From: an uncultured Pseudomonadota bacterium
GTDB lineage: Bacteria > Pseudomonadota > Alphaproteobacteria > Rs-D84
DNA length: 64,000 nt
Direction: 5' to 3'
Assembly: GCA_947307295.1 (NCBI GenBank)
Contig: CAMZIQ010000002.1
Coordinates: 8,447 to 72,446, forward strand
This document shows, one piece after another, positions 14,861-45,890 of this stretch. The translations under genes were made by a program, and so were the position numbers. A model generated the notes under the pieces. That model was not told the origin of the DNA. It saw nothing but the letters and a program-made list of their open reading frames with translations, and made no database searches. Within the stretch, counting starts at the first letter, position 1. Each line of letters opens with the position of its first letter.

Positions 14861-14934
14861 TGGTGCCCTAAGCAAGAATCGGACTTGCGACTCGTCCTTA
14901 CCAAGGACGTGTTTTACCACTAGACTATTAGGGC
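14861..14934 (-). tRNA. tRNA-Thr (anticodon GGU)
   Basis: The reverse complement folds as a cloverleaf: acceptor GCCCTAA/TTAGGGC, anticodon arm CGTCC-TTGGTAA-GGACG, T arm GCAAG-TCCGATT-CTTGC, encoded CCA. The D stem has one mismatch. Confidence 0.85.
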
Positions 14935-15812: not shown

Positions 15813-15950
15813 TTTTCATCCCTTGTTTTTCACATTGGGATGTATTACAGCACACTTTATATGAAAAATCAAATTTTTTTCCACCTTTTTAATGTTGGAA
15901 ACATATTTTCACAATAACGGCGCATTTGCTTGTTCTCGCCAACTATCGTG

Positions 15951-15977
15951 TCGGACCCTAGACCAAAGGATTATGAT
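15951..15977 (-). repeat. Partial copy of tRNA-Met, from the anticodon loop to the 5' half of the T-loop
   Basis: 25 of 27 nt are identical to 17418-17444 of the intact tRNA-Met gene, in the same orientation. Identity starts in the anticodon loop and stops in the T-loop (TCCGA). Confidence 0.8.
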
Positions 15978-16160
15978 GTATCGGACACCAAAACCGCATA
16001 ACCACGTTTTCTGCCGTATGCGTTTATAACGCAAACGATTTATATCTCACGATATCCAACCTTTCTGTTTTTGAGCTGTCCGCTGTTCTAGCACCATTAA
16101 AACTTGCATTATATAGTAAATAAATATAAAATATATCTCAGCGGTGCTAGGAGAACACAG

Positions 16161-17006
16161 ATGATAAATATAACGGAACCACAAAAACGATTATGCGATA
16201 TTGAAAATATATTTTTAACTGGTAATACCGAAATTGAAACAAAAGCCGATTTAGCAAAAATAGTAGAAGAACCTTGCTTAGCGGTTTGTGAAAATTTATA
16301 TAATAAAAACATTTTAACTTATTGGAGTTCTGCTAATAAATATGCACCCAATAGAGCATATGTATTGATTAGGTATGAAAGCCTTGATGATATCAATAAA
16401 AAAATAGCAAATGATTTGATTAAACAAGGAATTTTAAGCGATACTAAATACATATTCGATTCCTATAATAAAGCTGATGAATACGGCAAGGGTTTATATC
16501 TTGGAATTGATACAAATCCTGATATGTTTGTCAGCGACATATCTAAAAAATTATGTCAAATAGCAGATAACTTTGTACTACAAGACATAAAATATAACGT
16601 ATACACTCCTGAATATTTATTGTCTAAAGACCCTTTTACCCGAACTAAAAAAGTTTTTGCTTTCCCAGATCTTAAAACAACAATTTATGGTAAACAACAT
16701 ATAAAAGAGTCTGACAAAGAAAAAATTTATGACTATATAGAAATTATGATACACAGTAAACAAGATCTTGGTTTAACATCAGAAGATATGCGTACTATTG
16801 CAGAAAAAATTGGTTGGCTATACAATGAAGAAAACGGATTTTTATATAAAGACAATGAAACACTACGTCGACACAATGAATACATACAAAATGCTTGTGC
16901 AAATAAAATTGAAATTATAAAACAAGGGTCTAACAAAGTCATATCATTATTTGAAAAAAATACACCTGTAAATAATGTACAGAAAACATGTTCCAGACAA
17001 AGTTAA
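16161..17006 (+). CDS. Hypothetical protein (281 aa) inside the tRNA-Met-associated islet
   Basis: ATG preceded by an AGGAG RBS. No motif recognised. The track ORF starts at TTG 16104. Confidence 0.55.
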   Translation: MINITEPQKRLCDIENIFLTGNTEIETKADLAKIVEEPCLAVCENLYNKNILTYWSSANKYAPNRAYVLIRYESLDDINKKIANDLIKQGILSDTKYIFDSYNKADEYGKGLYLGIDTNPDMFVSDISKKLCQIADNFVLQDIKYNVYTPEYLLSKDPFTRTKKVFAFPDLKTTIYGKQHIKESDKEKIYDYIEIMIHSKQDLGLTSEDMRTIAEKIGWLYNEENGFLYKDNETLRRHNEYIQNACANKIEIIKQGSNKVISLFEKNTPVNNVQKTCSRQS

Positions 17007-17120: not shown

Positions 17121-17228
17121 TGGCGAAGGGATTGTTTCGCTTCGCTTCACTCCCTTGCAAAATCCACCTTCGTTAAAACTTCGGTGGACCGGCGCTGTTC
17201 CGCCTTTTTGCTGTGGGTCGGACCCCTG
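17121..17228 (-). repeat. tRNA-Met 3'-end pseudo-copy with its T-loop interrupted by an approximately 85-nt G+C-rich insert
   Basis: Minus strand reads CAGGGGTCCGA, then the insert, then AATCCCTTCGCCA. The flanks are 11/11 and 12/12 identical to the T arm and acceptor 3' strand of tRNA-Met. Confidence 0.7.
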
Positions 17229-17241
17229 TGCCGGTGTCCAA

Positions 17242-17334
17242 CGCGGCGAAGGATTCGCTCGGCATAAATGCCTACGCGGCAACCGTGACGATTTTGGTAC
17301 GTTTCACTTCCAAAATCTACTTGTTGTCGGACCC
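17242..17334 (-). repeat. Second T-loop-interrupted tRNA-Met 3'-end pseudo-copy, with an approximately 70-nt insert
   Basis: Minus strand reads GGGTCCGA, then the insert, then CGAATCC-TTCGCCGC. The right flank is 15/16 identical to the tRNA. This unit is more diverged than 17121-17228. Confidence 0.55.
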
Positions 17335-17360
17335 GGGGTCCTCATCCGTCGTCACTAAAC

Positions 17361-17388
17361 CAAAATAAAAAACGACCACAATGGTCGT
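17361..17388 (-). terminator. Rho-independent terminator after tRNA-Met
   Basis: Hairpin ACGACCA-N3-TGGTCGT followed on the minus strand by TTTTTTATTTT. A weaker T-run is also present on the plus strand. Confidence 0.75.
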
Positions 17389-17397
17389 TTGTTATTT

Positions 17398-17472
17398 TGG
17401 TAGCGGCGAAGGGATTCGGACCCCTGACCAAAGGATTATGATTCCTCTGCTCTACCACTGAGCTACGCCGCC
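17398..17472 (-). tRNA. tRNA-Met (anticodon CAU; elongator-type, could also be a lysidine-modified tRNA-Ile2)
   Basis: Cloverleaf: acceptor GGCGGCG/CGCCGCT, D arm GCTC-AGTGGTA-GAGC, anticodon arm GAGGA-ATCATAA-TCCTT, T arm AGGGG-TCCGAAT-CCCTT, encoded CCA. Positions 1:72 are paired, so it is not an initiator. Confidence 0.85.
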
Positions 17473-31919: not shown

Positions 31920-31996
<77 letters not shown>

Positions 31997-32005
31997 GTTA
32001 AATGA

Positions 32006-32033
32006 AAATCGCACTATTTTTGGTGCGATTTTT
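32006..32033 (+). terminator. Terminator after tRNA-fMet
   Basis: Hairpin ATCGCAC-N8-GTGCGAT followed by a T-run. Confidence 0.7.
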
Positions 32034-32175
32034 ATTTAATTTGTTCTGGGATTATTGGTTTGAAGCGTATGATGCATGTTTCCATAAAATGTATCGTTAT
32101 GTTCCCCCAGTAGATGATGTTGTTTTTGTCCACATAATGTAATTATTTATATGTTGTTATTTTTTATAATATTAA

Positions 32176-32664
32176 TCAGTGGTTTTCTGTTTCTGCTTCA
32201 ATCAATTCATCAATAGCTTTAATTTTATTTTCTAAATTTAATATTTTCTTTTCCAAAGAAGATGTATCTTTTGATTTTACATATTTAGCCACATCTGCGG
32301 GTATATTTTTTAATTTATTCTTTTCTTGTTCAACTTCTTTGCGTTGTTTTATTAATTCATCTTCTGTTTTTACTTTTAAATCATGAAGAAAAGCAATTCT
32401 TTCTGTTTTTTTAAGGTTTATATATTTTTCATTGTTTACAATTTCTATTTTGAATGGTTTAGTCTTCGCTTCTTTTGCTTTTTTAGCAGCCGATTCTTTT
32501 GCATTCTTAAATATATTAACTAGTATATATATGATATAAAAAACCAATCCAAATATTACCCATCCAAACGCCCTATGAATTGTCTGAGAAGAAGGTTGAT
32601 ACTCTCCACTAATAACCGCTATCCCAAACGAAGCAATAAATAAGGCTAATAATATTTGTTTCAT
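32176..32664 (-). CDS. Hypothetical membrane protein (162 aa; 2 TM plus a Lys/Glu coiled coil)
   Basis: ORF inside the tRNA-fMet islet. No motif recognised. Confidence 0.5.
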   Translation of the reverse strand: MKQILLALFIASFGIAVISGEYQPSSQTIHRAFGWVIFGLVFYIIYILVNIFKNAKESAAKKAKEAKTKPFKIEIVNNEKYINLKKTERIAFLHDLKVKTEDELIKQRKEVEQEKNKLKNIPADVAKYVKSKDTSSLEKKILNLENKIKAIDELIEAETENH

Positions 32665-32687
32665 TTATTATACTCCTATGATTAATC

Positions 32688-33386
32688 TTAAAAACCAGGT
32701 ACTACTATTTTGAATTTACTATATTCTTCTCTAACCGCTTCATCTGCAGAATCTTCTATCATTTTGCAATAATCCTTTCTTGTGAAATTAAGTATACCAT
32801 CTTGTGCAGCTAATCTTTTTACAGACTGATAATCATCTTCTATTTGTTTATGAAAGGTTTGTATTACATTTGGGTTTGATATTATTGATGTTTCTAAAGT
32901 CTTTGCACCAGATGAACCAAACGCATTATTTAATATATTTACTGCTTTTGTTTTTTTCTCTTTAAACATTGAATCAAATTTTCTTTTTAAATTGTTAACA
33001 GGGTAATACTGAGAACAATATTTAACTATTTTATAGTCATTAGAAATTATAAAACCATACGCCTTTGATGCTTGTCGAACCAACTCAGAATTCTGTTTTG
33101 CATAATTTTTGTTTGAAGAAGATACATCTGATAAATTTTCCATTTGTTTAGTAGAAGCAGAAATATTATTGATATTATACTGCCGTTTTTCACCTGTTAT
33201 GTTATCTTCAACTTTTACTTGTAGTATATCACCATGCGAAGAAGCTTCATATTTTGCATAAAGTGTATCTGTAGAATATTGGCTATGATTTGAATTTTCC
33301 GAAGTTAAAAAAATCGATATAATAACAAGAGCAACTAAACAAAGTATAAGTTTCCCTAACAAACCGATAAAATTATTTTTTTCCAT
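32688..33386 (-). CDS. Hypothetical membrane-anchored protein (232 aa)
   Basis: N-terminal TM anchor. Lies inside the tRNA-fMet islet. No motif recognised. Confidence 0.5.
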   Translation of the reverse strand: MEKNNFIGLLGKLILCLVALVIISIFLTSENSNHSQYSTDTLYAKYEASSHGDILQVKVEDNITGEKRQYNINNISASTKQMENLSDVSSSNKNYAKQNSELVRQASKAYGFIISNDYKIVKYCSQYYPVNNLKRKFDSMFKEKKTKAVNILNNAFGSSGAKTLETSIISNPNVIQTFHKQIEDDYQSVKRLAAQDGILNFTRKDYCKMIEDSADEAVREEYSKFKIVVPGF

Positions 33387-33587
33387 TTTTTACCTATTAA
33401 CTACTAAAGGCATTGTGTCACAGACTGATAGTTTATTCAACATTTTTTTCCTAATTGATTAATAATGAATTAATTATTATAAAACATTTTACATTTGTCT
33501 AAAAACACGATAAATTTAAAAAGTGCCAAGCAAAGAGTCAGGCATTTCAATGTTTTTAGTCTAAAATTGTCTCAAAAAAGGCAGTTT

Positions 33588-33705
33588 TCATAACCTGAAG
33601 GTCGGTGGTTCAGTGCAAGGATTAGGCGGGTGGAAACACGCCGGTTTGCCAAAGGCAAAAATCCGCAGACAATGAAGCAAAGCGAAATAAATCCATCTCC
33701 CGCAA
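33588..33705 (+). repeat. Displaced tRNA-fMet 3'-half (anticodon loop to acceptor end) with a 77-nt insert in the T-loop
   Basis: 33588-33612 is identical (25/25) to 31953-31977, and 33690-33705 is identical (16/16) to 31978-31993. They are separated by a G+C-rich insert at 33613-33689. Confidence 0.85.
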
Positions 33706-34392: not shown

Positions 34393-37300
34393 TTATTTAT
34401 ATATTCCATTATCTATTCTGGTTATATCAATACCCATATGTTCATTTTCATCAATCTGTGTTTGTATATCACGTATTATAATATCTGGACGATAATTTTC
34501 TGCTTTTGTTTTATCATAATCAACAATTAAACTAATAAAACTTTTTAAATCCAATTTTTTAAAATCGTTTAATAAACCAGGATCCTTTTTTCTTAATTTA
34601 CTAATCAAGATATTTGCTTTAACTGTGTTAACAATCTTTTTATCAATGATTCCAGAACTTGCGACCGCGATTATTATATTTTGTAATTCGCTTTTAGTCA
34701 AAGATTTAGATTCTTGGATAATATTACCATTTTCATCTTTTATTTCTTTCTGATATTCAATAATATCTGACAAAGCCAATATACCTCGTTGCACACCATC
34801 GATATAAGATGAATCTATACCTAACTTTTTACTAAAAGAATCTATATTTTGAACATTATCATTTAAAACACTTGATATATTTTTCCCAGTTCGTACACCA
34901 AGAATCAGTTTATAAAAAAGGTGCCCCAACATAACTTTATCAATCATACCTGTGTCATGACTCATTTGTGCGCCAGTATCAAATATCCCTATACAAAAAT
35001 CACGAAACGCATCATTATTTAAACCAAATTCTGGTAATTTTTCATAAAAATTCTGCTGACCAGCATGACGATCAGTATCCCAACGCGCTCCTGACAATAA
35101 TATAGCTAATTCCAAAGTCACATACGCGATTGCCATATCGTGTTTATCTTCTTCATCAATTTCATCTGATGTTAATGCCTTGCCTGGGGCTATTTCCATA
35201 ATTTTATATGAATTTTCTATTTTATTATTTGCGCCACATACCAGCCACCGTGCAACACTTGGTGAATATTTTGCATCTTTGGTTTTAACTTGTAATGCTT
35301 CATAAACGCGTATTGCGTATAAATATTTATCTAAATCCTGTTTTATATCAATTTCTTCACTACACGAAGCACGAGCTTGATTTACTATATTCTTTAATGG
35401 TTCAAATTTAGCATCTTGCTGTGCCATATCATTAATAGAATTTGAAATCAAATCTATACCAGACATAATAATATTTTTTGTATTAGGACGCATCAATGCG
35501 ATAACGCAATCTTTACCTTTGTATTTTATTTGAACTGTTAAATATATAGAACCACCACCTAATACTTTACCAACATAAGAAATATCTTTTCTTATGTCTT
35601 CGTGCACAGATTGTTTTATTATATCAAATATTTCATCACGAGTTGGGATATTTGCACGATCTCGCAAAGTTGACAATTCATTACAAATTTCTGAATCTAG
35701 TGATGATAAATAAGATAACATTTGTCCAAATTTAATAAAAGCCCCTCCTTCGTTTTGGAAGAACATTTTAAGCCCACGCCCAACTTGTTGTGCATTTGAT
35801 AAACCAGATTTATCTTCTTTTTTTCCAGACCCCAACAACGCAGCCAACATCAAACTTTTTTCATATGATTGAAAGTTTTTATATACAGATTTTAAAACTA
35901 TTTTGGCATCATTATAATAAACAGAATCTTTATCAAAATACATATCTACAACTAAATCTAATTTTTTATTATCATTACCTTGGGCATATTTATCTAATAA
36001 TTGATCAAATACAACAGCCCTTAATTTTAAATCCATATTCCACACATTTTCATATAACAAAGTCAATGTCGATTTGTTTAATAATTTTTTATAATTGTCT
36101 ATATCATATTCAGAATAACGAACAGATTGTTCAAAAAACAAATCACACGAATCTATTAACGTTTGTATAGATTTATCAGATAATTTTATGCTTAAAAATT
36201 GTATCACAGCTAATGAAATTTCTGGCGATTTTGTAAATAATTCTATTAATGTTTCACCACCAACTAGTATTTTATTATAGTCTTCTATTTTGTTCGCATC
36301 TATATGATATTTAGCAGCATCACCAAACATTTTTGCAGCACGTTCTTGCGCCAAAACTTTAACAGAAATACCATCTAATATCTTTTTGACGATGTCATCA
36401 GAAAAAACTTGTTTACCTTTATTATCAGATTTTTTAATTGAATTTATTACATTTTGAACCAGATTTAAATAATGATCTGATCCATCATCAATCCCCAGAT
36501 TACCAGCATAATATCGCGCACAAAATTCACACAATTTATTACGTTCATCAATAAATTTAAAATTTTTATCTTTGCCAGATAAAGTCTGTTTACCATAAAA
36601 AATTTCAAAATTTTTATCTCTCTGTTTACCATATTCAGATATATTTTTACCGGACAAAATTTTTTCAGATATATCATACAAATAATCAAATTTATATTTA
36701 TCTTTTGTTTTGACAATATCATCAACTATAATTTTAATATATTTGTTATTATTTGCGTACTTTTCAGAAAATAAATCATATTCTTCCATAAATTCATACA
36801 AAGATATTTTATCCATTAAATCTAATGAATTAAATTCATCAACATTTATATATTCTGCCAAAATATCTGATACAGCTGGAATTTTATTATGCTCATAACC
36901 AAGAGACAAAAATGTACCCATATTTAGTATATTTTTTATATGAAATTTATGACCATTTTTGATATATATAGCTAATAAAATTAATGCACATTGTGGTGAT
37001 AAAAGTTTCATACTTTCAATTAATTCAGCCTCGTTTTGTGGCATCTTAGATAAACCAATATTTTTAAATATTTGTTCTATCAAATTTGATGAATTATTCT
37101 TAGAAGATAAAAAATTATCTATATAATATCTTAAATATGAAACATCGACGTCCAAAGATTTTATGTCATTTACAGAGTTTTTAACCATATCTGGATAAAA
37201 TTCTTTAATAATTTCTTTTGTTCTTTTTTGTTTAATTTGGCGTTTTTTTCTTAAATTATCCATATTATCATCAGGATTTTTCCAATTCTCATCATAATCA

Positions 37301-39321
37301 ATATATAACAAATCATCAAGGTGATAAAAACAACTATCTGCAACTTTTGATATATCGCTAAACACATTTTTATCTTTTAATGTTAAACATGCCTGAACTA
37401 TATTTTTTGTAAATTTTTCAAAATTAATTGGTGTCAAAACAAATAAAAAAAACGATATTAATGATTGAAATTTTTCTGTATTTTCTTTCCTATTTAACAC
37501 ATCAATAAATTCTGACATTTCTGGTTGTTTGAATATAAATTTATTATAAAAATCAGATTTAATTATTTTGTAATAAAGTTCTTTTAATTCAGAATAATTT
37601 AAATTACGAGAATGTATTAATTTATCAAATTTATAAACTTGGGTTTGAAAATCTTCAATAGTTGAAATATCTCTATAATTTGTATACAATAAATATTCAT
37701 ATTTTTTATATTCATATATTTTTTTATAAATAAAGTTTTTACTTATTTTTCCATCTAAATATTGCGCAAAAGAATCAAACAAATCAATTTTTTTATTAAT
37801 ATTCGTTTTTATTTCTTTTATAAAATCATCTAAATTTTTTTGTCTTATATCATCCCCATATAATGTTATTATGTTATTTTCAATATAATATTCATCTTTA
37901 TCAAAATCTACTTTTCGAGAATAATGCGGTTCATCAAAATAACTATCAAAATAAATTAAATCAAAAATTTTATTTATATTTTCATCATTATAAGATTTCA
38001 ATTGAACCCATGGAAATTTTTTTCCAATATTATCTTTACCCAAAGGCTTCAAAGCAGGCCATTCAACATCAAAATCTTCTGCATAATCCACTGTCCATCG
38101 TAAATCGTATATTTTTTTTGCATAATATATAGATTTTTCTTTGTCATAACAATTTTTAATAAGATTTTCTATATTTTTATATTGCTCTTGAAAAGGACCA
38201 AATACCTTTAAATTAAAATTTTTTATTATTGTTTTAATTGCTTTTAAATAGTTTTTATCTAGAAATTTTGTTTTTTTAATTAATTTTAATATAATATCTT
38301 GGATTAAATTTTTTTCTTGTTCAGATTTTATAATAACTTTATATTCTGGTGTTTTTACACATAAATCATAAATTATTGCATTAAAAAATTTTGTATTATT
38401 TTCATTTTTATCAATCATATCCTTTATTAATTGTAAAAAATCTAACATCCCCACTTTTTTCAAATTATCGGATTTTTTTCTTCCTAAAATCATTTTAATA
38501 AAATACATTATATCAAAATTTCTTGCATCTTTTGACAATAATGTTCTACGTAAAAATTTTATAGAATCTACCCAATCTAAATCTTTTGTTCCAAATTTCT
38601 TAATCAATTCTTTATCTATATATGTGTTATAAGGTTCTTTTTTATAAACATTTTCAACATCTTTTTGAAATTTTAACCATTCTTTATCTGATGCATCATT
38701 TTCTATTGATGGAAAACGCCCTTGTTCCATTGCTATGGTCTTTAATGTATAATTAACCACATCCATACGCGAATTATCAGAACCATGAACATCGGATAAA
38801 TCATTTATAACATCTTTTAATGTAAATTCTGAATTATATGATCGTGTAAACCGTAATAATTCAGTTTGCATTACTGAAACATATTGCGGATTATATCCGC
38901 CGTTTACCATCATTTTTACACTATAGCTATCTGAACCTTGTTCTTGGATAGTATTATTATCACCACCAATTAAATCAGCCCATACAGAATGTCCTGCTTC
39001 GTGTCCCAAAACTGCGGCAAAAGTTTCATGTCTTTTTGCTTGGCGTATTAATCCCAAAGATACAGCTATAACCTTTTTTTTCTTTTTAATACCATCTTCT
39101 ATAACTTCTATATCATCCCTTAATTTAAACGCATTTACTTCGTTTTCATCATACCCAGTAAAATAAAAATTATCCAAATTAATATCTGTATTACGAAATA
39201 ATCTGCCAAACACTTCCCGTATTTTAGGCGAAATTACCTTATACATCTCACTATCTGGTCGATAAATACGAAATTGTTCAAATAAATATTCACTTTTTTC
39301 AGTAAGTTCTATTTTTGACAT
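34393..39321 (-). CDS. Giant multidomain protein (1642 aa): N-terminal M48-like Zn-peptidase motif, Asn/Lys/Ile-rich middle, C-terminal ABC1/UbiB atypical-kinase-like domain
   Basis: VLGHEAGHSVW (HExxH, aa 107-111) plus EQGSDSYSVKMMVNGGYNP. Near aa 1190: GGAFIKFGQMLSYL...ELSTLRDRANIP, GGGSIYLTVQIKYKGKDCVIALMRPN, MEIAPGKAL, WDTDRHAGQQNF. Confidence 0.75.
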   Translation of the reverse strand: MSKIELTEKSEYLFEQFRIYRPDSEMYKVISPKIREVFGRLFRNTDINLDNFYFTGYDENEVNAFKLRDDIEVIEDGIKKKKKVIAVSLGLIRQAKRHETFAAVLGHEAGHSVWADLIGGDNNTIQEQGSDSYSVKMMVNGGYNPQYVSVMQTELLRFTRSYNSEFTLKDVINDLSDVHGSDNSRMDVVNYTLKTIAMEQGRFPSIENDASDKEWLKFQKDVENVYKKEPYNTYIDKELIKKFGTKDLDWVDSIKFLRRTLLSKDARNFDIMYFIKMILGRKKSDNLKKVGMLDFLQLIKDMIDKNENNTKFFNAIIYDLCVKTPEYKVIIKSEQEKNLIQDIILKLIKKTKFLDKNYLKAIKTIIKNFNLKVFGPFQEQYKNIENLIKNCYDKEKSIYYAKKIYDLRWTVDYAEDFDVEWPALKPLGKDNIGKKFPWVQLKSYNDENINKIFDLIYFDSYFDEPHYSRKVDFDKDEYYIENNIITLYGDDIRQKNLDDFIKEIKTNINKKIDLFDSFAQYLDGKISKNFIYKKIYEYKKYEYLLYTNYRDISTIEDFQTQVYKFDKLIHSRNLNYSELKELYYKIIKSDFYNKFIFKQPEMSEFIDVLNRKENTEKFQSLISFFLFVLTPINFEKFTKNIVQACLTLKDKNVFSDISKVADSCFYHLDDLLYIDYDENWKNPDDNMDNLRKKRQIKQKRTKEIIKEFYPDMVKNSVNDIKSLDVDVSYLRYYIDNFLSSKNNSSNLIEQIFKNIGLSKMPQNEAELIESMKLLSPQCALILLAIYIKNGHKFHIKNILNMGTFLSLGYEHNKIPAVSDILAEYINVDEFNSLDLMDKISLYEFMEEYDLFSEKYANNNKYIKIIVDDIVKTKDKYKFDYLYDISEKILSGKNISEYGKQRDKNFEIFYGKQTLSGKDKNFKFIDERNKLCEFCARYYAGNLGIDDGSDHYLNLVQNVINSIKKSDNKGKQVFSDDIVKKILDGISVKVLAQERAAKMFGDAAKYHIDANKIEDYNKILVGGETLIELFTKSPEISLAVIQFLSIKLSDKSIQTLIDSCDLFFEQSVRYSEYDIDNYKKLLNKSTLTLLYENVWNMDLKLRAVVFDQLLDKYAQGNDNKKLDLVVDMYFDKDSVYYNDAKIVLKSVYKNFQSYEKSLMLAALLGSGKKEDKSGLSNAQQVGRGLKMFFQNEGGAFIKFGQMLSYLSSLDSEICNELSTLRDRANIPTRDEIFDIIKQSVHEDIRKDISYVGKVLGGGSIYLTVQIKYKGKDCVIALMRPNTKNIIMSGIDLISNSINDMAQQDAKFEPLKNIVNQARASCSEEIDIKQDLDKYLYAIRVYEALQVKTKDAKYSPSVARWLVCGANNKIENSYKIMEIAPGKALTSDEIDEEDKHDMAIAYVTLELAILLSGARWDTDRHAGQQNFYEKLPEFGLNNDAFRDFCIGIFDTGAQMSHDTGMIDKVMLGHLFYKLILGVRTGKNISSVLNDNVQNIDSFSKKLGIDSSYIDGVQRGILALSDIIEYQKEIKDENGNIIQESKSLTKSELQNIIIAVASSGIIDKKIVNTVKANILISKLRKKDPGLLNDFKKLDLKSFISLIVDYDKTKAENYRPDIIIRDIQTQIDENEHMGIDITRIDNGIYK

Positions 39322-41881: not shown

Positions 41882-42175
41882 TTGAAACAAACAGTCTTAA
41901 AAGCCTTAGCAAATCCGCCGCGCATATTTTATGTGCCTTATAATCTTGCTATTTTAAATTTTCTATTTTGGTTTTTAATATTTGTGTTTTCTATGGCTGT
42001 GTATTTAATCATAAGTGATATTCCTATGTGGTTGCCATTGGCTTTTTTGGGTGTTTTATTCATAACACATTCAATTTTAGGTTTTTTTTCAAGAAAAGAC
42101 TCACAGATAGCACAAATGATATTATCTACTATGAAAATATTTAGTAAAAAAATACCAAGAAGGTTAATAGTATAA
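41882..42175 (+). CDS. virB3: Type IV secretion system protein VirB3
   Basis: 97 aa with two TM helices and N-terminal KALANPPRIFYVPYNLAILNF. Lies directly upstream of virB4. TTG start with RBS. Confidence 0.7.
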   Translation: MKQTVLKALANPPRIFYVPYNLAILNFLFWFLIFVFSMAVYLIISDIPMWLPLAFLGVLFITHSILGFFSRKDSQIAQMILSTMKIFSKKIPRRLIV

Positions 42176-42177
42176 AA

Positions 42178-44589
42178 ATGGAAAAAATATTTGATTATTT
42201 TGCTGGAAATAATAACGAAATGACTTTAACACTTGTCATAATAACTATGTCAGTTGTTTTAGCTTTTTTGGTTTTGTTAATGTATATACCAACATTAACA
42301 AGAAAGATTTTTCCAAGATTTGGTTATATGAAATATTCTGATTATTTACCTTTTAATACAGTATATAATGATAATACATTGTCTGTAAATGATGGCTCAT
42401 TAGTCAGGGTTTATAAAATAACTGGTATTCAAACCAGTATGTTAGATGAAAAAAATACAGAAAAATTTCTTGATTTAAGGGCCAGTTTATTTAATCAAAT
42501 TCAAGATCCTGATGTATATCTAAGGTTTTTTACAATTCGTGATTTTGCTGACGAAAAGACTAATTATGAATTTGACCAAGCAACTTTGCAAAAAATATAT
42601 GATAAATGGAATAATCAAGGTTTAAAGATATATAACAATACATATTATGTAGTTATATCTGTTCACGGTCAAAATAATCATGAAAAATTAAATCAATGTT
42701 GTAATTATGTTGAATCTATATTATCTGCGTATAAGCCTATTTTATTAGAAAATAATAAAATTGATAATATGGCGACATTTTTTGGACGTATTTTATCACC
42801 TGTATCTAAACCTGTGATAAAAACATGTGATAATAATATATCACAAAATGTGACTGTGGATAGTGTAGAATTTAATAAAAATGGAATCATTGAATATAGT
42901 AGCGGTGATAAAACATATTATGCATCGGCTTTGTCTTTTAAATTTTCGCCAGATTACTTAGATGAAGAATTTTTTAATACTATATCCACAATTCAATGTG
43001 AAATGATATGTATGAATGCGTTCAGGGTTTTAAGGTCAAGCGACATAGATACATTAATGCGTCAACATAAATCAACTATTACAGACGAAACAGAAGAATC
43101 AACAATGGAACAAATTGTTGAAGCACAATCTTCTATGGATGAAAATAAAACTGGTGCTCAAACCTTAGTTGATTATTATCCTTTGTTTATTTTATTTGGT
43201 AAAAATATTGATGAATTAAACCAAAGTATTGCAGAATTTAAAAAAATATCTGCATCATTTGGTATATCACCAGTAGTTGAAAGATTTGCTTCAAAAGTAT
43301 CATTTTTTGCACAATTACCGGGATTTGATGTATTTCCACGCAGTTTTAAAATGTTATCAAAAACAGCAGCTATAAGTATACCTTTATCAACAATGCCACG
43401 TGGTGTAGAAAATTGTGATTGGGGTCCGGGTCCTTTGGTTGTATTCCCAACTGCCCAAGGAACACCATATCAATTTCAATTTCATGTTTCTGATAAACCG
43501 GCTGCTGTGGGTCATACTTTGACTATTGGACCAACAGGCGGCGGAAAAACAACATTATTTTCATTTTTAATTTCTCAATCTCTAAGACATAAAAAATTAA
43601 AAGCCTTTTTCTTTGATAGAAACAGGGGTGCTGAAATATTTACATTGGCTATTGACGGTAAATATATCACGATGAATGGCAAAGAAAAAGAAGCAAATAA
43701 AAATACATTTTTAACACATTTAAATCCATTAAAAATGCCGGATAATGCTTCAAATCGTGCGTTTTTACGCAGATGGATGTCAATGATAACAGGATTAAAT
43801 GATGTCTTATCTAGTGATGAAATCGCACGTGCTGTATCTGTGAATTTTGATTATTTATCTGATAAAGATAGATTATTAAAAAATCTTTATGAAAGTTGTT
43901 TTTCATCTGGTGGAAAAATGCGTGATGAATTAAAAAAATGGATAGACCCACTTCAATATGGGGATATATTTAATGAAGATGCAGATACACTTGATTTAAA
44001 TTCGCGTCTTACAACTTTTGATTTTACTGAAATTTTACAAGATGAAATTTTAGCACCGGCAGTTATATCTTATATATTACATAGAATAAACACAGTGACA
44101 GTATCTGGTGGAAATCCTTCATTAATTATGATTGATGAAACGGCGCCTATGCTTGAAAATAAAATGTTCCGCGATAATTTTATAGCAGGGCTTCAAGAAG
44201 GTCGTAAAAACCGTCAGGCTTATATGGTTGCTTTCCAACGTGCAAATGTTCTTGATAAACTGGGTATAGGTGATGTTGTTCGTGGTCAGGCACAAACAGT
44301 ATTATTCTTTAGAAATCCTGCTGCAGATGTGACTGATTATGAAAAATGGAATTTAAATCCATTAGAAATGGCATTTATCAAGGGACAGGCTTATCCGAAT
44401 CTTAAACGTGCGGTTTTATTATCAAGACCCGTTAATAATGAATCTGTTATTTTAAATACAGAACTTGGTGGACTTGGTAATATGTTAAAATTATTTGAAT
44501 CTGGACGTTCTTCTGTGTTATTAGCTGAAGATTTATATAAAACTTATGGAAATAAATTTGTTGAAGAATATTTAAAAAAGCAAGGGTAA
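42178..44589 (+). CDS. virB4: Type IV secretion system ATPase VirB4
   Basis: 803 aa with Walker A GPTGGGKTT and a Walker B-like SLIMIDETAPML. Confidence 0.9.
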   Translation: MEKIFDYFAGNNNEMTLTLVIITMSVVLAFLVLLMYIPTLTRKIFPRFGYMKYSDYLPFNTVYNDNTLSVNDGSLVRVYKITGIQTSMLDEKNTEKFLDLRASLFNQIQDPDVYLRFFTIRDFADEKTNYEFDQATLQKIYDKWNNQGLKIYNNTYYVVISVHGQNNHEKLNQCCNYVESILSAYKPILLENNKIDNMATFFGRILSPVSKPVIKTCDNNISQNVTVDSVEFNKNGIIEYSSGDKTYYASALSFKFSPDYLDEEFFNTISTIQCEMICMNAFRVLRSSDIDTLMRQHKSTITDETEESTMEQIVEAQSSMDENKTGAQTLVDYYPLFILFGKNIDELNQSIAEFKKISASFGISPVVERFASKVSFFAQLPGFDVFPRSFKMLSKTAAISIPLSTMPRGVENCDWGPGPLVVFPTAQGTPYQFQFHVSDKPAAVGHTLTIGPTGGGKTTLFSFLISQSLRHKKLKAFFFDRNRGAEIFTLAIDGKYITMNGKEKEANKNTFLTHLNPLKMPDNASNRAFLRRWMSMITGLNDVLSSDEIARAVSVNFDYLSDKDRLLKNLYESCFSSGGKMRDELKKWIDPLQYGDIFNEDADTLDLNSRLTTFDFTEILQDEILAPAVISYILHRINTVTVSGGNPSLIMIDETAPMLENKMFRDNFIAGLQEGRKNRQAYMVAFQRANVLDKLGIGDVVRGQAQTVLFFRNPAADVTDYEKWNLNPLEMAFIKGQAYPNLKRAVLLSRPVNNESVILNTELGGLGNMLKLFESGRSSVLLAEDLYKTYGNKFVEEYLKKQG

Positions 44590-44595
44590 TTTATA

Positions 44596-45267
44596 TTGTC
44601 CAAAATATTTAAATTTTTTTTAATTTGTTGTTATGTATTTATTCCTGTTTATGCTTTTGCAACAGATTGTTCAAAATATAAATATGATGTAGATATAAAT
44701 GTAAATAATATAACTAAATATGAACCTGTTATACAATCGTCAAAAGAAAATATGATTGGTAAAATGGGTGAAATTCTTTATCAATTATCATATTCTTTGA
44801 AAATATTTATGATTCAAATACCTGTAAAAGACGGATATTGTGTTTCTTTGCGAAGCGTAGATATAGATATAAATGTCCCAGAATTTTTAATAAATATTGA
44901 TAAAAGGTTAAAACCTGATACTTGTGCTTATAATATAGTTTTAAAACATGAACAAGACCATATGAATGTAAATAAAACTGTTATAAATTCTAATATAGAT
45001 AGAATAAAACAGGCAGTAATAAATGCTGTTGATTCTATAAAGCCAGTATTTATATCGAAAATAGAAGATTCTGGTGATATACAAATAAATATACAAAACG
45101 AAATAGAAAACTATAAAGATGTCAAAGATATAAAGAAAAAAATAAAATCAGAAATGAATAACGCTAATGAAGAAATAGATACTCGTGGTGATAGTTTTGA
45201 AATGTGGAAATGTGAAGATTTTTATAATGAAATGAAAAAATATAGTGATAAAATAAGAATAGATTAG
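44596..45267 (+). CDS. Secreted HExxH protein, paralogue 1 (putative Zn-metallopeptidase, DUF922-like pattern)
   Basis: Signal peptide, DGYCVSLRSVDIDINVPEF ... TCAYNIVLKHEQDHMNV, and a Lys/Glu/Ile-rich helical tail. Conserved Cys residues are shared with the next ORF. Confidence 0.5.
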   Translation: MSKIFKFFLICCYVFIPVYAFATDCSKYKYDVDINVNNITKYEPVIQSSKENMIGKMGEILYQLSYSLKIFMIQIPVKDGYCVSLRSVDIDINVPEFLINIDKRLKPDTCAYNIVLKHEQDHMNVNKTVINSNIDRIKQAVINAVDSIKPVFISKIEDSGDIQINIQNEIENYKDVKDIKKKIKSEMNNANEEIDTRGDSFEMWKCEDFYNEMKKYSDKIRID

Positions 45268-45269
45268 AT

Positions 45270-45890
45270 ATGAAAAAAATAATTTATTTATTTTTATCAA
45301 TGTTTTTATGTATATATGCTGCAAAAGCATCAGATGATTGTTTGGATTATAAATTAAACCCAAAAATTACTATAACAACGCCGAACTGGGAAAAAAATGT
45401 AGTTCAACCATTAAAAAAAATGAATGTTTTGCACGGTAATGTAATAGCTACACTGGTAGATAAATTTGAAATAACTGGTGATATAACATCAATAGAAGAT
45501 GGATTTTGTGTAGCGTTAAAAAATGTTGATGTTGTTATCGGTTATTCTGATTTTTTAGTTCAAATAGATATATCGCATAAGCAGAATACATGTTCTTATG
45601 ATGCAATACTTCAACATGAAGATGAACACATCAAGGCTTATTTATCTGTTATAGATGATAATCAAGATTTATTAAATAAATCTATAAAATCAGCAGCTGA
45701 TTCAATAGTCCCGATATTTGTTCATGATTCTAAAGATATAGAATCAGCAATTGATAAATTACACGAAGAACTGGAAAAACATCCAGATATAATTTTATTA
45801 AAACAACATATCAAAGCAGATGAAGAAATACGTAATAAATATGTTGATTTACACGATACAGGTGAAACATTAAAAAAATGTACAGAATAA
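45270..45890 (+). CDS. Secreted HExxH protein, paralogue 2
   Basis: Signal peptide and DGFCVALKNVDVVIGYSDF ... TCSYDAILQHEDEHIKA. It is colinear with 44596-45267. Confidence 0.5.
   Translation: MKKIIYLFLSMFLCIYAAKASDDCLDYKLNPKITITTPNWEKNVVQPLKKMNVLHGNVIATLVDKFEITGDITSIEDGFCVALKNVDVVIGYSDFLVQIDISHKQNTCSYDAILQHEDEHIKAYLSVIDDNQDLLNKSIKSAADSIVPIFVHDSKDIESAIDKLHEELEKHPDIILLKQHIKADEEIRNKYVDLHDTGETLKKCTE

Follow-up and report, generated by a model that had tools for sequence, protein, structure and literature searches.

A stretch of 76-77 nt splits the T-loop of a displaced copy of an initiator tRNA gene, and we consider, with moderate confidence, that it is the folded terminal recognition module of tiny recombinase-less elements that integrate at the T-loop. 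The module sits at the end of larger units of common architecture, which form tandem arrays, differ between strains by precise insertion/deletion polymorphism, show structural covariation, and have no recombinase nearby. The original prediction, made from the sequence alone, is partly supported. It was right that the family is real and apparently undescribed, and that its structure is selected and its position site-specific; it was wrong about the identity of the mobile unit, which it took to be the stretch itself.

Organization of the fMet and Met loci

The window, i.e., the whole 64,000-nucleotide stretch of DNA analyzed here, contains three tRNA genes according to ARAGORN and Rfam, encoding tRNA-Thr, the elongator tRNA-Met (17472-17398, minus strand), and the initiator tRNA-fMet (31920-31996, plus strand). 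No unit or tRNA fragment is present upstream or downstream of the tRNA-Thr gene (14861-14934, minus strand), and therefore not every tRNA gene is occupied. Features of the other two loci are listed in Table 1.

The intact tRNA-fMet gene is the target of the elements at the fMet locus. The terminator and spacer behind it are 75% homologous to the matching stretch of MAG RUG11635 (referred to as L106), where this segment runs directly into a palindrome formed by the T-arm and then into the module. The window has strain-specific cargo at this locus, consisting of two minus-strand orphan ORFs (32176-32664 and 32688-33386), followed by a segment identical to 31953-31977 of the tRNA gene, the module, and a segment identical to 31977-31993. 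The predicted split of the T-loop is thus borne out by exact tRNA pieces (25/25 and 17/17) around 33613-33688. The right piece, from which CCA is missing, is the old tRNA 3' end, displaced by integration; in relatives, this copy retains ACCA plus the terminator.

The place of 33588-33612 is occupied in relatives only by GGTGGTTCA, paired with an inverted copy upstream (e.g., GAACCACC-gagaaa-GGTGGTTC). The window copy, with 25 nt of tRNA as its left flank and the palindrome gone, is atypical: the cargo and 16 extra tRNA bases take the place of the left palindrome arm in relatives. What had been described as a displaced tRNA half to the left of the insert is normally 9-10 nt only, paired with its own inverted copy. 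A closely related strain, L053, encodes an identical neighboring protein and lacks the two-ORF segment; ~90 nt past its tRNA terminator are GAACCACC-gagaaa-GGTGGTTCA, the same 76 nt, and then TTCCATCTCCCGCAA. The arrangement in L106 is the same. Since both loci still carry the module without the cargo, the module is part of the locus and does not belong to the cargo.

Table 1. Features of the fMet and Met loci, with positions in the window, strand, and the evidence for each.
Feature	Position	Strand	Evidence or remark
Intact tRNA-fMet (CAT)	31920-31996	+	ARAGORN; Rfam tRNA 62.7 bits
Terminator hairpin and spacer 3' of tRNA-fMet	31997-32058	+	Inverted repeat I1; comparison with L106
Strain-specific cargo	32059-33587		Missing from L053 and L106
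Copy of tRNA-fMet positions 34-58 (anticodon loop to T-loop TTCA)	33588-33612	+	25/25 identity
Type A1 structured module (76 nt; 77 nt if the single ambiguous A is included)	33613-33688	+	nhmmer E 6e-27; covariation counts; folds
A1 module, J0	33613-33618	+	
A1 module, P1	33619-33623 x 33660-33664	+	
A1 module, P2	33625-33628 x 33639-33642	+	
A1 module, P3	33645-33650 x 33654-33659	+	
A1 module, linker	33665-33672	+	
A1 module, purine tail TGAAGCAAAGCGAAATA	33673-33689	+	GCAAAGC mini-hairpin inside
Copy of tRNA-fMet positions 58-74 (3' half of the T-loop, 3' strands of T-stem and acceptor)	33689-33705	+	17/17 identity
Intact elongator tRNA-Met	17398-17472	-	ARAGORN, Rfam, repeat I4
tRNA-Met terminator	17359-17401	-	Repeat I4
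Type B unit	17242-17347	-	nhmmer E 1e-29; homologues behind tRNA-Ser, Arg, fMet, Pro
Type A2 unit	17122-17241	-	nhmmer E 4e-14
Orphan cargo ORF	16104-17006	+	Flanked by the type A unit and the oldest tRNA-Met fragment
Oldest, decayed unit	15879-15977	-	Repeats D2, D8; missed by the nhmmer profile

On the minus strand, the Met locus consists of the tRNA gene, its terminator, a split T-arm filled with 71 nt, another filled with 84 nt, an ORF, and a tRNA fragment. The first unit (type B) starts with a palindrome, GGACCC-c-GGGTCC, and a T-loop CGA with its end at 17327. Its module (17326-17256, 71 nt) reads CAACAAGTAGATTTTGG...CCAAAATCGTCACGGTTGC...GGCAT-TTA-TGCC-GAGCG, and a decayed tRNA 3' copy, AATCC-TTCGCCGCG (17255-17242), closes the unit. 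The original prediction had not set this second module type in a split T-arm apart as a family. The next unit (type A2) comprises an inverted T-arm copy, TTGGACACC (17241-17233), a loop, a T-arm 5' copy, AGGGGTCCGA (17227-17218), a module of 84 nt (17217-17134), and, at its end, a truncated tRNA 3' copy. The flanks of this module are tRNA-Met positions 47-57 (17228-17218) and 57-68 (17133-17122), and the module itself contains the stems P1 (GCAAAA/TTTTGC), P2 (GGCG/CGCC), and P3 (TCCACC/GGTGGA) and a tail with GCGAAGC. In the oldest unit, a copy of tRNA-Met positions 31-57 (15977-15951, two mismatches) has the same end point in the T-loop and is followed by about 50 nt and then a truncated type A start. 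We also searched for same-species contigs covering the Met locus and found none.

The fMet insert is homologous to 17217-17134 of the Met locus (nhmmer E 6e-27 and 4e-14, respectively), as had been proposed, and the shared blocks AGGCGG, AACA, and CGCCGGT and the two hairpins lie at the expected places. As the local alignment of the two modules outscores 1996 of 2000 shuffles, their similarity is beyond chance. The tails, TGAAGCAAAGCGAAATAA and TGAAGCGAAGCGAAACAA, agree at 16 of 18 positions, with no third such site in the window, and a profile built from related copies matches exactly these two type A sites in the 64 kb (nhmmer). A third, degraded copy had been suggested after the tRNA-Met fragment; the block named for it (15940-15918) is not significant, and what does follow the fragment is a weak remnant of the type A start CCAACATTAAAAAGGTGGAA at ~15898-15879 (16/20, p about 0.04).

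Units behind six tRNA genes and their gain and loss

A genome scan with a two-block pattern, using one genome per species, gave 56 matches, one of which was real (L106). Together with the window, L053, and 18 true metagenome loci (of 29 scan matches), this makes 21 sources, a sample that is biased because the loci were found by a search for the type A module. The wider search for copies found the module always in one place of a larger unit. The nhmmer profiles count 25 modules of type A and 9 of type B. Besides type A, with its subfamilies A1 and A2, there are at least three more module types (B-D), which take the same place in the unit.

Each unit starts with the T-loop 3' half, the T-stem 3' strand, the acceptor 3' strand, and CCA, followed by an intrinsic terminator. 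The middle holds cargo from none to ~3 kb, unrelated between units: L053 and L106 have no cargo, the window has two ORFs, EamA and Fic genes occur elsewhere, and membrane or orphan ORFs are present at further related loci. The later part contains a reverse-complement copy of the T-stem 5' strand and T-loop (9-15 nt) and a loop of ~6 nt, and the unit ends with a direct T-stem 5' copy plus TTCA or TTCGA and the module, after which comes the next tRNA 3' end. Every unit is flanked by direct repeats of 19-20 nt that reach from T-loop position 58/59 to CCA, and minimal units are 175-185 nt long. The host tRNA genes are those for fMet, Met, Ser(TGA), Arg(ACG), Pro(GGG), and Glu(TTC), so that the position in the T-loop is shared by six tRNA species, compared with the two from which it was originally noticed.

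Tandem units, two or three in number, are frequent, and types A1, A2, B, C, and D are mixed in them. Subfamily A1 goes with TTCA and A2 with YCGA, the targets being TTCA, TCGA, or CCGA, and the spacer that accompanies type A in L053 goes with type B in L113. A variant of A1 in L128 (21-300) and L130 (5529-5640) has a compensated P2 (GGCA...TGCC) and the junction strand GA in place of GG.

Gain and loss of units can be seen directly between close strains. The loci L112, L131, and L120 are near-identical around tRNA-Ser and have otherwise identical flanks; L112 has 176 extra bases exactly at the tRNA-Ser T-loop, which are missing in L131 and L120. These bases comprise a tRNA 3' end, a terminator, a hairpin, and a type B module and are bounded by a 19-nt repeat, AATCCCTCACCATCCGCCA, while the pre-existing terminator and type A unit are simply shifted downstream. 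Similarly, where L130 has a single type A unit, L128 has two identical ones at a spacing of 185 nt. All polymorphisms that we saw concern whole units and never the module alone. The clean presence or absence of the 176-nt unit upholds the link to site-specific insertion, and it is the whole unit of ~175-185 nt (tRNA 3' end, terminator, palindrome, and module), not the insert, that comes and goes.

The distal tRNA 3' copies have decayed, with CCA gone or the copy truncated, as expected of displaced, unselected relics. The 58/59 boundary recalls the m1A58 stop. The repeats run a few bases past CCA and upstream of +1; hence copying occurs at the DNA level and not from mature tRNA, and reverse transcription of mature tRNA was rejected on this ground.

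One model, which develops the original prediction, is that the module of 76-85 nt is itself a miniature PATE-like transposable element of the IS200/IS605 type. It would be moved by a transposase encoded elsewhere and would insert on its own into redundant displaced tRNA halves, in their T-loops and behind TTCA or YCGA. Such an invader would account for the constant T-loop position and for the two hairpins, the small one lying a few bases from the right end; the pairing of A1 with TTCA and of A2 with YCGA looks as though each subfamily had a target of its own, and backbones and module types are mixed, as in the spacer shared by L053 and L113. In all 21 sources, however, an intact T-arm is present only in the tRNA gene itself, and none of the ~29 extra tRNA 3' copies has an uninterrupted T-arm (a count that includes types B-D, which were outside the search pattern of the scan). 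This absence of empty sites could be explained if insertion destroys the excision site, leaving only invaded units to survive. Further, the left segment is a copy of 9-10 nt locked in a hairpin and not a displaced half, the two hairpins are unlike each other, in contrast to IS200/IS605 ends, and neither TnpA nor TnpB was found in cargo, tested ORFs, or flanks. Because there is no uninvaded displaced T-arm and only whole units vary, we disfavor a stand-alone invader and regard it as very unlikely. The reading pursued below is that of the module as the terminal part of a larger integrating element.

Mirror-image units are present 5' of tRNA-Ser, at ~4792-4950 of L112 (minus strand), ~8950-9110 of L131, and ~1823-1945 of L120 (minus strand). 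Each contains tRNA positions 1-36, a copy that stops within the anticodon loop. Next come a structured filling that has GCGAAGC 2 nt from the junction and a short anticodon-loop/stem 3' copy (AAAACCGC) with an inverted partner, and finally the full tRNA. Split T-loops thus have a counterpart in the anticodon loop, which can be split from the 5' side. Within the acceptor strand of the displaced 3' copy behind tRNA-Glu in L131 (~2045-2130, type C), ~80 nt separate ATCCGAGTGGG from GGCTGCCA; this is a further small insertion, and the copy in L112 is uninterrupted.

Fold of the module

Single-sequence folds give a three-way junction in most copies. Covariation was counted in 19 distinct type A copies aligned by hand, because MAFFT alone misaligned the two subfamilies; with gaps written as N, the hand alignment was preserved by MAFFT. 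Standard pairs occupy 99% of 387 cells, in an alignment fitted to the structure whose cell counts are not independent events, and double changes occur at 12 of 21 pairs. The covariation score of 0.435 was reached by none of 500 shuffles (0.141 +/- 0.016), and controls in which the partners were moved by 1-3 columns gave 0.04-0.115. P3 contains five covarying pairs of several pair types, both within and between subfamilies; P2 changes from GGCG/CGCC to GGCA/TGCC, plus one G.U; and P1 is wholly different, with GGATT/AATCC in A1 and GCAAAA/TTTTGC in A2. A helix P0 beside P1 is supported in A2 (CCC/GGG to TCC/GGA) and not in A1, and was excluded from the counts. The same helices were recovered by RNAalifold. 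Structural covariation is thus present in the larger alignment, and since the stems covary, the inserts represent a selected fold and not deletion scars, as originally argued.

RNAalifold gave an extra helix of four pairs between the T-loop TTCR and an invariant TGAA at the start of the tail (12 A-U and 7 G.U). In the window, it involves 33604-33612 with 33673-33676 (columns 6-9 with 88-91 of alignment A3), and it would compete with the upstream palindrome for shared bases.

Several features concern the strand and the nucleic acid that fold. Between the inverted and the direct T-arm copies, we counted 140 Watson-Crick, 5 G.T, 0 A.C, and 24 other positions. When whole units were folded as single-stranded DNA, the sense strand had z-scores of -3.1, -2.3, and -2.6, vs. 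-2.0, -0.9, and -1.3 for the antisense strand, and the window fMet copy folded as RNA was no better than shuffled sequences (z +0.38). In every module type, a hairpin lies 5-9 nt ahead of the point where the module meets the tRNA 3' end. Type A has GCGAAGC or GCAAAGC, 6 nt before this junction (33677-33683, and 17145-17139 on the minus strand), and the other types have a different hairpin at the same distance. GCGAAGC, of the class d(GCGNAGC), is an exceptionally stable mini-hairpin in DNA and not in RNA (PMC13037366). The modules of the window and L106 share 90.9% identity, compared with 75-80% for neighboring genes and spacers.

Covariation of this kind is typical of RNA, and the units may alternatively be genes or cis-elements of a structured RNA that is read through from the strong tRNA promoter and contains an antisense T-arm hairpin, the three-way junction, the purine tail, and a free tRNA 3' copy. 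Its host function would be, for instance, in tRNA processing or as a decoy or repair partner of damaged tRNA, and arrays would arise by duplication. The G.U-compatible changes on the tRNA-sense strand only, the CCA and terminator at the end of every unit, and the mirror unit 5' of tRNA-Ser, which is transcribed because it lies inside the pre-tRNA leader, would all suit such an RNA. The module is also more conserved than nearby coding genes, which could reflect a host function instead of mobility. Nevertheless, each 3' unit lies behind a strong intrinsic terminator, and no promoter-like site was found ahead of these units. The tRNA 3' copies decay with the module intact, and units with unrelated cargo are gained and lost between near-identical strains. 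At gathering score, Rfam detects only the three tRNAs in the window, and it returns nothing relevant even at E up to 10. The stability of GCGAAGC in DNA and not RNA and the poor RNA fold of the window fMet copy likewise count against a structured RNA, which we consider unlikely. We therefore return to the fold as part of an integrating element and to the enzyme that such an element would require.

Known systems and a possible route of integration

No integrase, transposase, HUH enzyme, or reverse transcriptase is encoded in the cargo, the tested ORFs of the window, or flanks up to ~10 kb, and Phage_integrase has no match in cargo or flanks; the enzyme is therefore hypothetical, and the cognate recombinase for which the original prediction called did not turn up within this range. 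The cargo ORFs at the fMet and Met loci of the window received no significant Pfam, PADLOC, or PHROG assignment. An autonomous relative was found neither among the 21 loci nor among viral contigs, phages, and plasmids, and no excised circle was seen. In viral contigs, the tail motif alone had 52 matches, all in unrelated coding sequence, the type A pattern had one chance match, and the type B pattern had none. BLAST of the Met-locus units against plasmids and phages gave nothing relevant, and our literature search found no description of a structured module in a split T-loop. Rfam and the phage, plasmid, and viral collections thus bear out the view that no described family matches.

Elsewhere in the window, a low-GC region (41882-45890, 25-32%) encodes a VirB4/TrbE-like type IV secretion ATPase (42178-44589) near small ORFs without an assigned family, with housekeeping genes (ychF, dnaG, and topA) around it. 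At 34393-39321 (minus strand, 20-31% GC) is an ORF of 1642 aa whose sole match is a weak one to an N-terminal M48 peptidase, and L053 has a counterpart of 1630 aa.

Some other candidates were tried and rejected. Judged by eye, the junction strands (A, GG, and 0-1 nt) do not fit hammerhead or other ribozyme cores, and the GUGYG start of group II introns is not conserved. A target-site duplication by staggered cuts leaves the inverted T-arm copy unexplained. A MITE, i.e., a derivative of a DDE transposon, does not fit since the module ends lack terminal inverted repeats, and the sole ambiguity there is one A.

A more classical explanation is that the module is the duplex arm region, with integrase arm, IHF, and excisionase sites, of ordinary T-loop integrase islands, the mini-units being deletion remnants and the hairpins having no function. 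The repeats span the T-loop to the 3' end, a known sublocation; Williams is said to have described, in 2002, a T-loop class among integrase targets. Palindrome and module together measure ~110-130 bp, a typical arm length, and tandem accretion of remnants is known, e.g., in CIMEs (PMC5704250) and ssrA islands (PMC3146451). Compensatory changes in three stems of varying sequence and length are, however, unexpected for duplex sites, as is one arm family shared by four or five tRNA identities. In addition, the module breaks the continuity of the core T-arm, and there is no integrase beside ~25 units or in the viral, phage, and plasmid collections. We therefore judge an integrase arm to be improbable, more so than a structured RNA and less so than a stand-alone invader.

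Among described systems, we rate the units as a variant of integrase-less integrative elements at tRNA genes. The closest comparison is the tandem accretion of integrative elements and CIMEs in the ICESt1/ICESt3 model (PMC5704250). Like CIMEs, the units have attachment-site repeats at their flanks, lack recombination genes (the cargo ORFs have no recombinase domains), and pile up in tandem at a single site; mobilization in trans, presumed for CIMEs, would apply to them as well. Unlike CIMEs, they are 10-100 times smaller (~180 bp), have no known integrase-bearing parent, end in a covarying folded module in a split T-loop, and occupy several tRNA species. T-loop islands and phages, and the tandem ssrA islands of Dehalococcoides (PMC3146451), share with them the restored 3' end, the repeat from T-loop to 3' end, and the arrays of displaced 3' fragments with variable cargo. 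These islands carry their own tyrosine integrase by the tRNA and leave a contiguous displaced T-arm, neither of which is found here: the displaced T-arm is always split by the structured module (0 of ~29 copies contiguous), with the T-arm palindrome ahead of it.

Integron attC sites and cassette arrays are similar in that small variable units alternate with recombination sites whose fold is better conserved than their sequence and of which one strand appears to be functional. They differ in that, by inspection, no module type here has R''/R' boxes (RYYYAAC/GTTRRRY), there is no adjacent intI or attI, the fold is a three-way junction instead of a simple hairpin, and entry is through a tRNA loop. 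The modules share with IS200/IS605 ends and PATEs a small size, a wealth of hairpins, the absence of a separate target duplication, a hairpin a few bases from the end, and insertion behind a short specific sequence. Here, P2 and P3, the left and right hairpins, bear no relation to each other, TnpA, TnpB, and empty sites were not found, and no intact site interrupted by the module alone was seen.

As we picture it, a minimal element of ~175-185 nt would consist of a replacement tRNA 3' end, a terminator, optional cargo, a T-arm hairpin, and the module, and would enter a tRNA gene at T-loop position 58/59. The tRNA would be left intact because the element supplies a new 3' end, and the old 3' end would be pushed downstream and placed right after the module. 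The split T-loop would then result from the T-arm copy and module of the element abutting the displaced original 3' end. Repeated entry would produce tandem arrays with the newest unit beside the tRNA and with decay of the older 3' copies. A recombinase encoded elsewhere would act in trans and probably recognize the folded single tRNA-sense strand by its three-way junction and the hairpin 5-9 nt before the junction. Short-tract recombination with the neighboring gene may fit the tRNA-derived parts to each tRNA. The window fMet copy and the oldest Met fragment, each with 25-27 nt of tRNA and no palindrome, look like products of such recombination; in the former, 1.5 kb of cargo and 16 extra tRNA bases may have replaced the palindrome of a pre-existing unit.

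More tentatively, tRNA genes may be the entry sites of an undescribed cassette system, in which tiny elements would be taken up at the T-loop when they come from the 3' side and, as a mirror image of this, at the anticodon loop when they come from the 5' side. The folded single strand would be read by an enzyme, either a recombinase or one assisted by RNA; the hairpin would restore the duplex of the target arm, and the covarying junction would position the cut. In function this would be similar to attC x attI, with entry at tRNA loops and with the tRNA-derived parts adapting to each tRNA. We hold this extension to be possible, and clearly less probable than the terminal recognition module on which it builds.

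tRNA genes are classic landing sites of islands and phages. To our knowledge, known tRNA-landing systems all have an element-borne integrase and duplex attachment sites. In the uncultured gut/rumen bacterium studied here, enzyme-less units of 180 bp come and go at one T-loop position, in at least six tRNAs and with small accessory genes carried along, an arrangement that is undescribed as far as our literature search went. If a recombinase does read the fold, the units would represent a new kind of integration site, one that is specified by structure and could perhaps be retargeted, and this would account for small gene cassettes behind tRNA genes without a visible integrase. If the fold is instead that of an RNA, it would represent a new tRNA-linked RNA class. 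On either reading, the units provide a concrete sequence signature for finding the missing enzyme.
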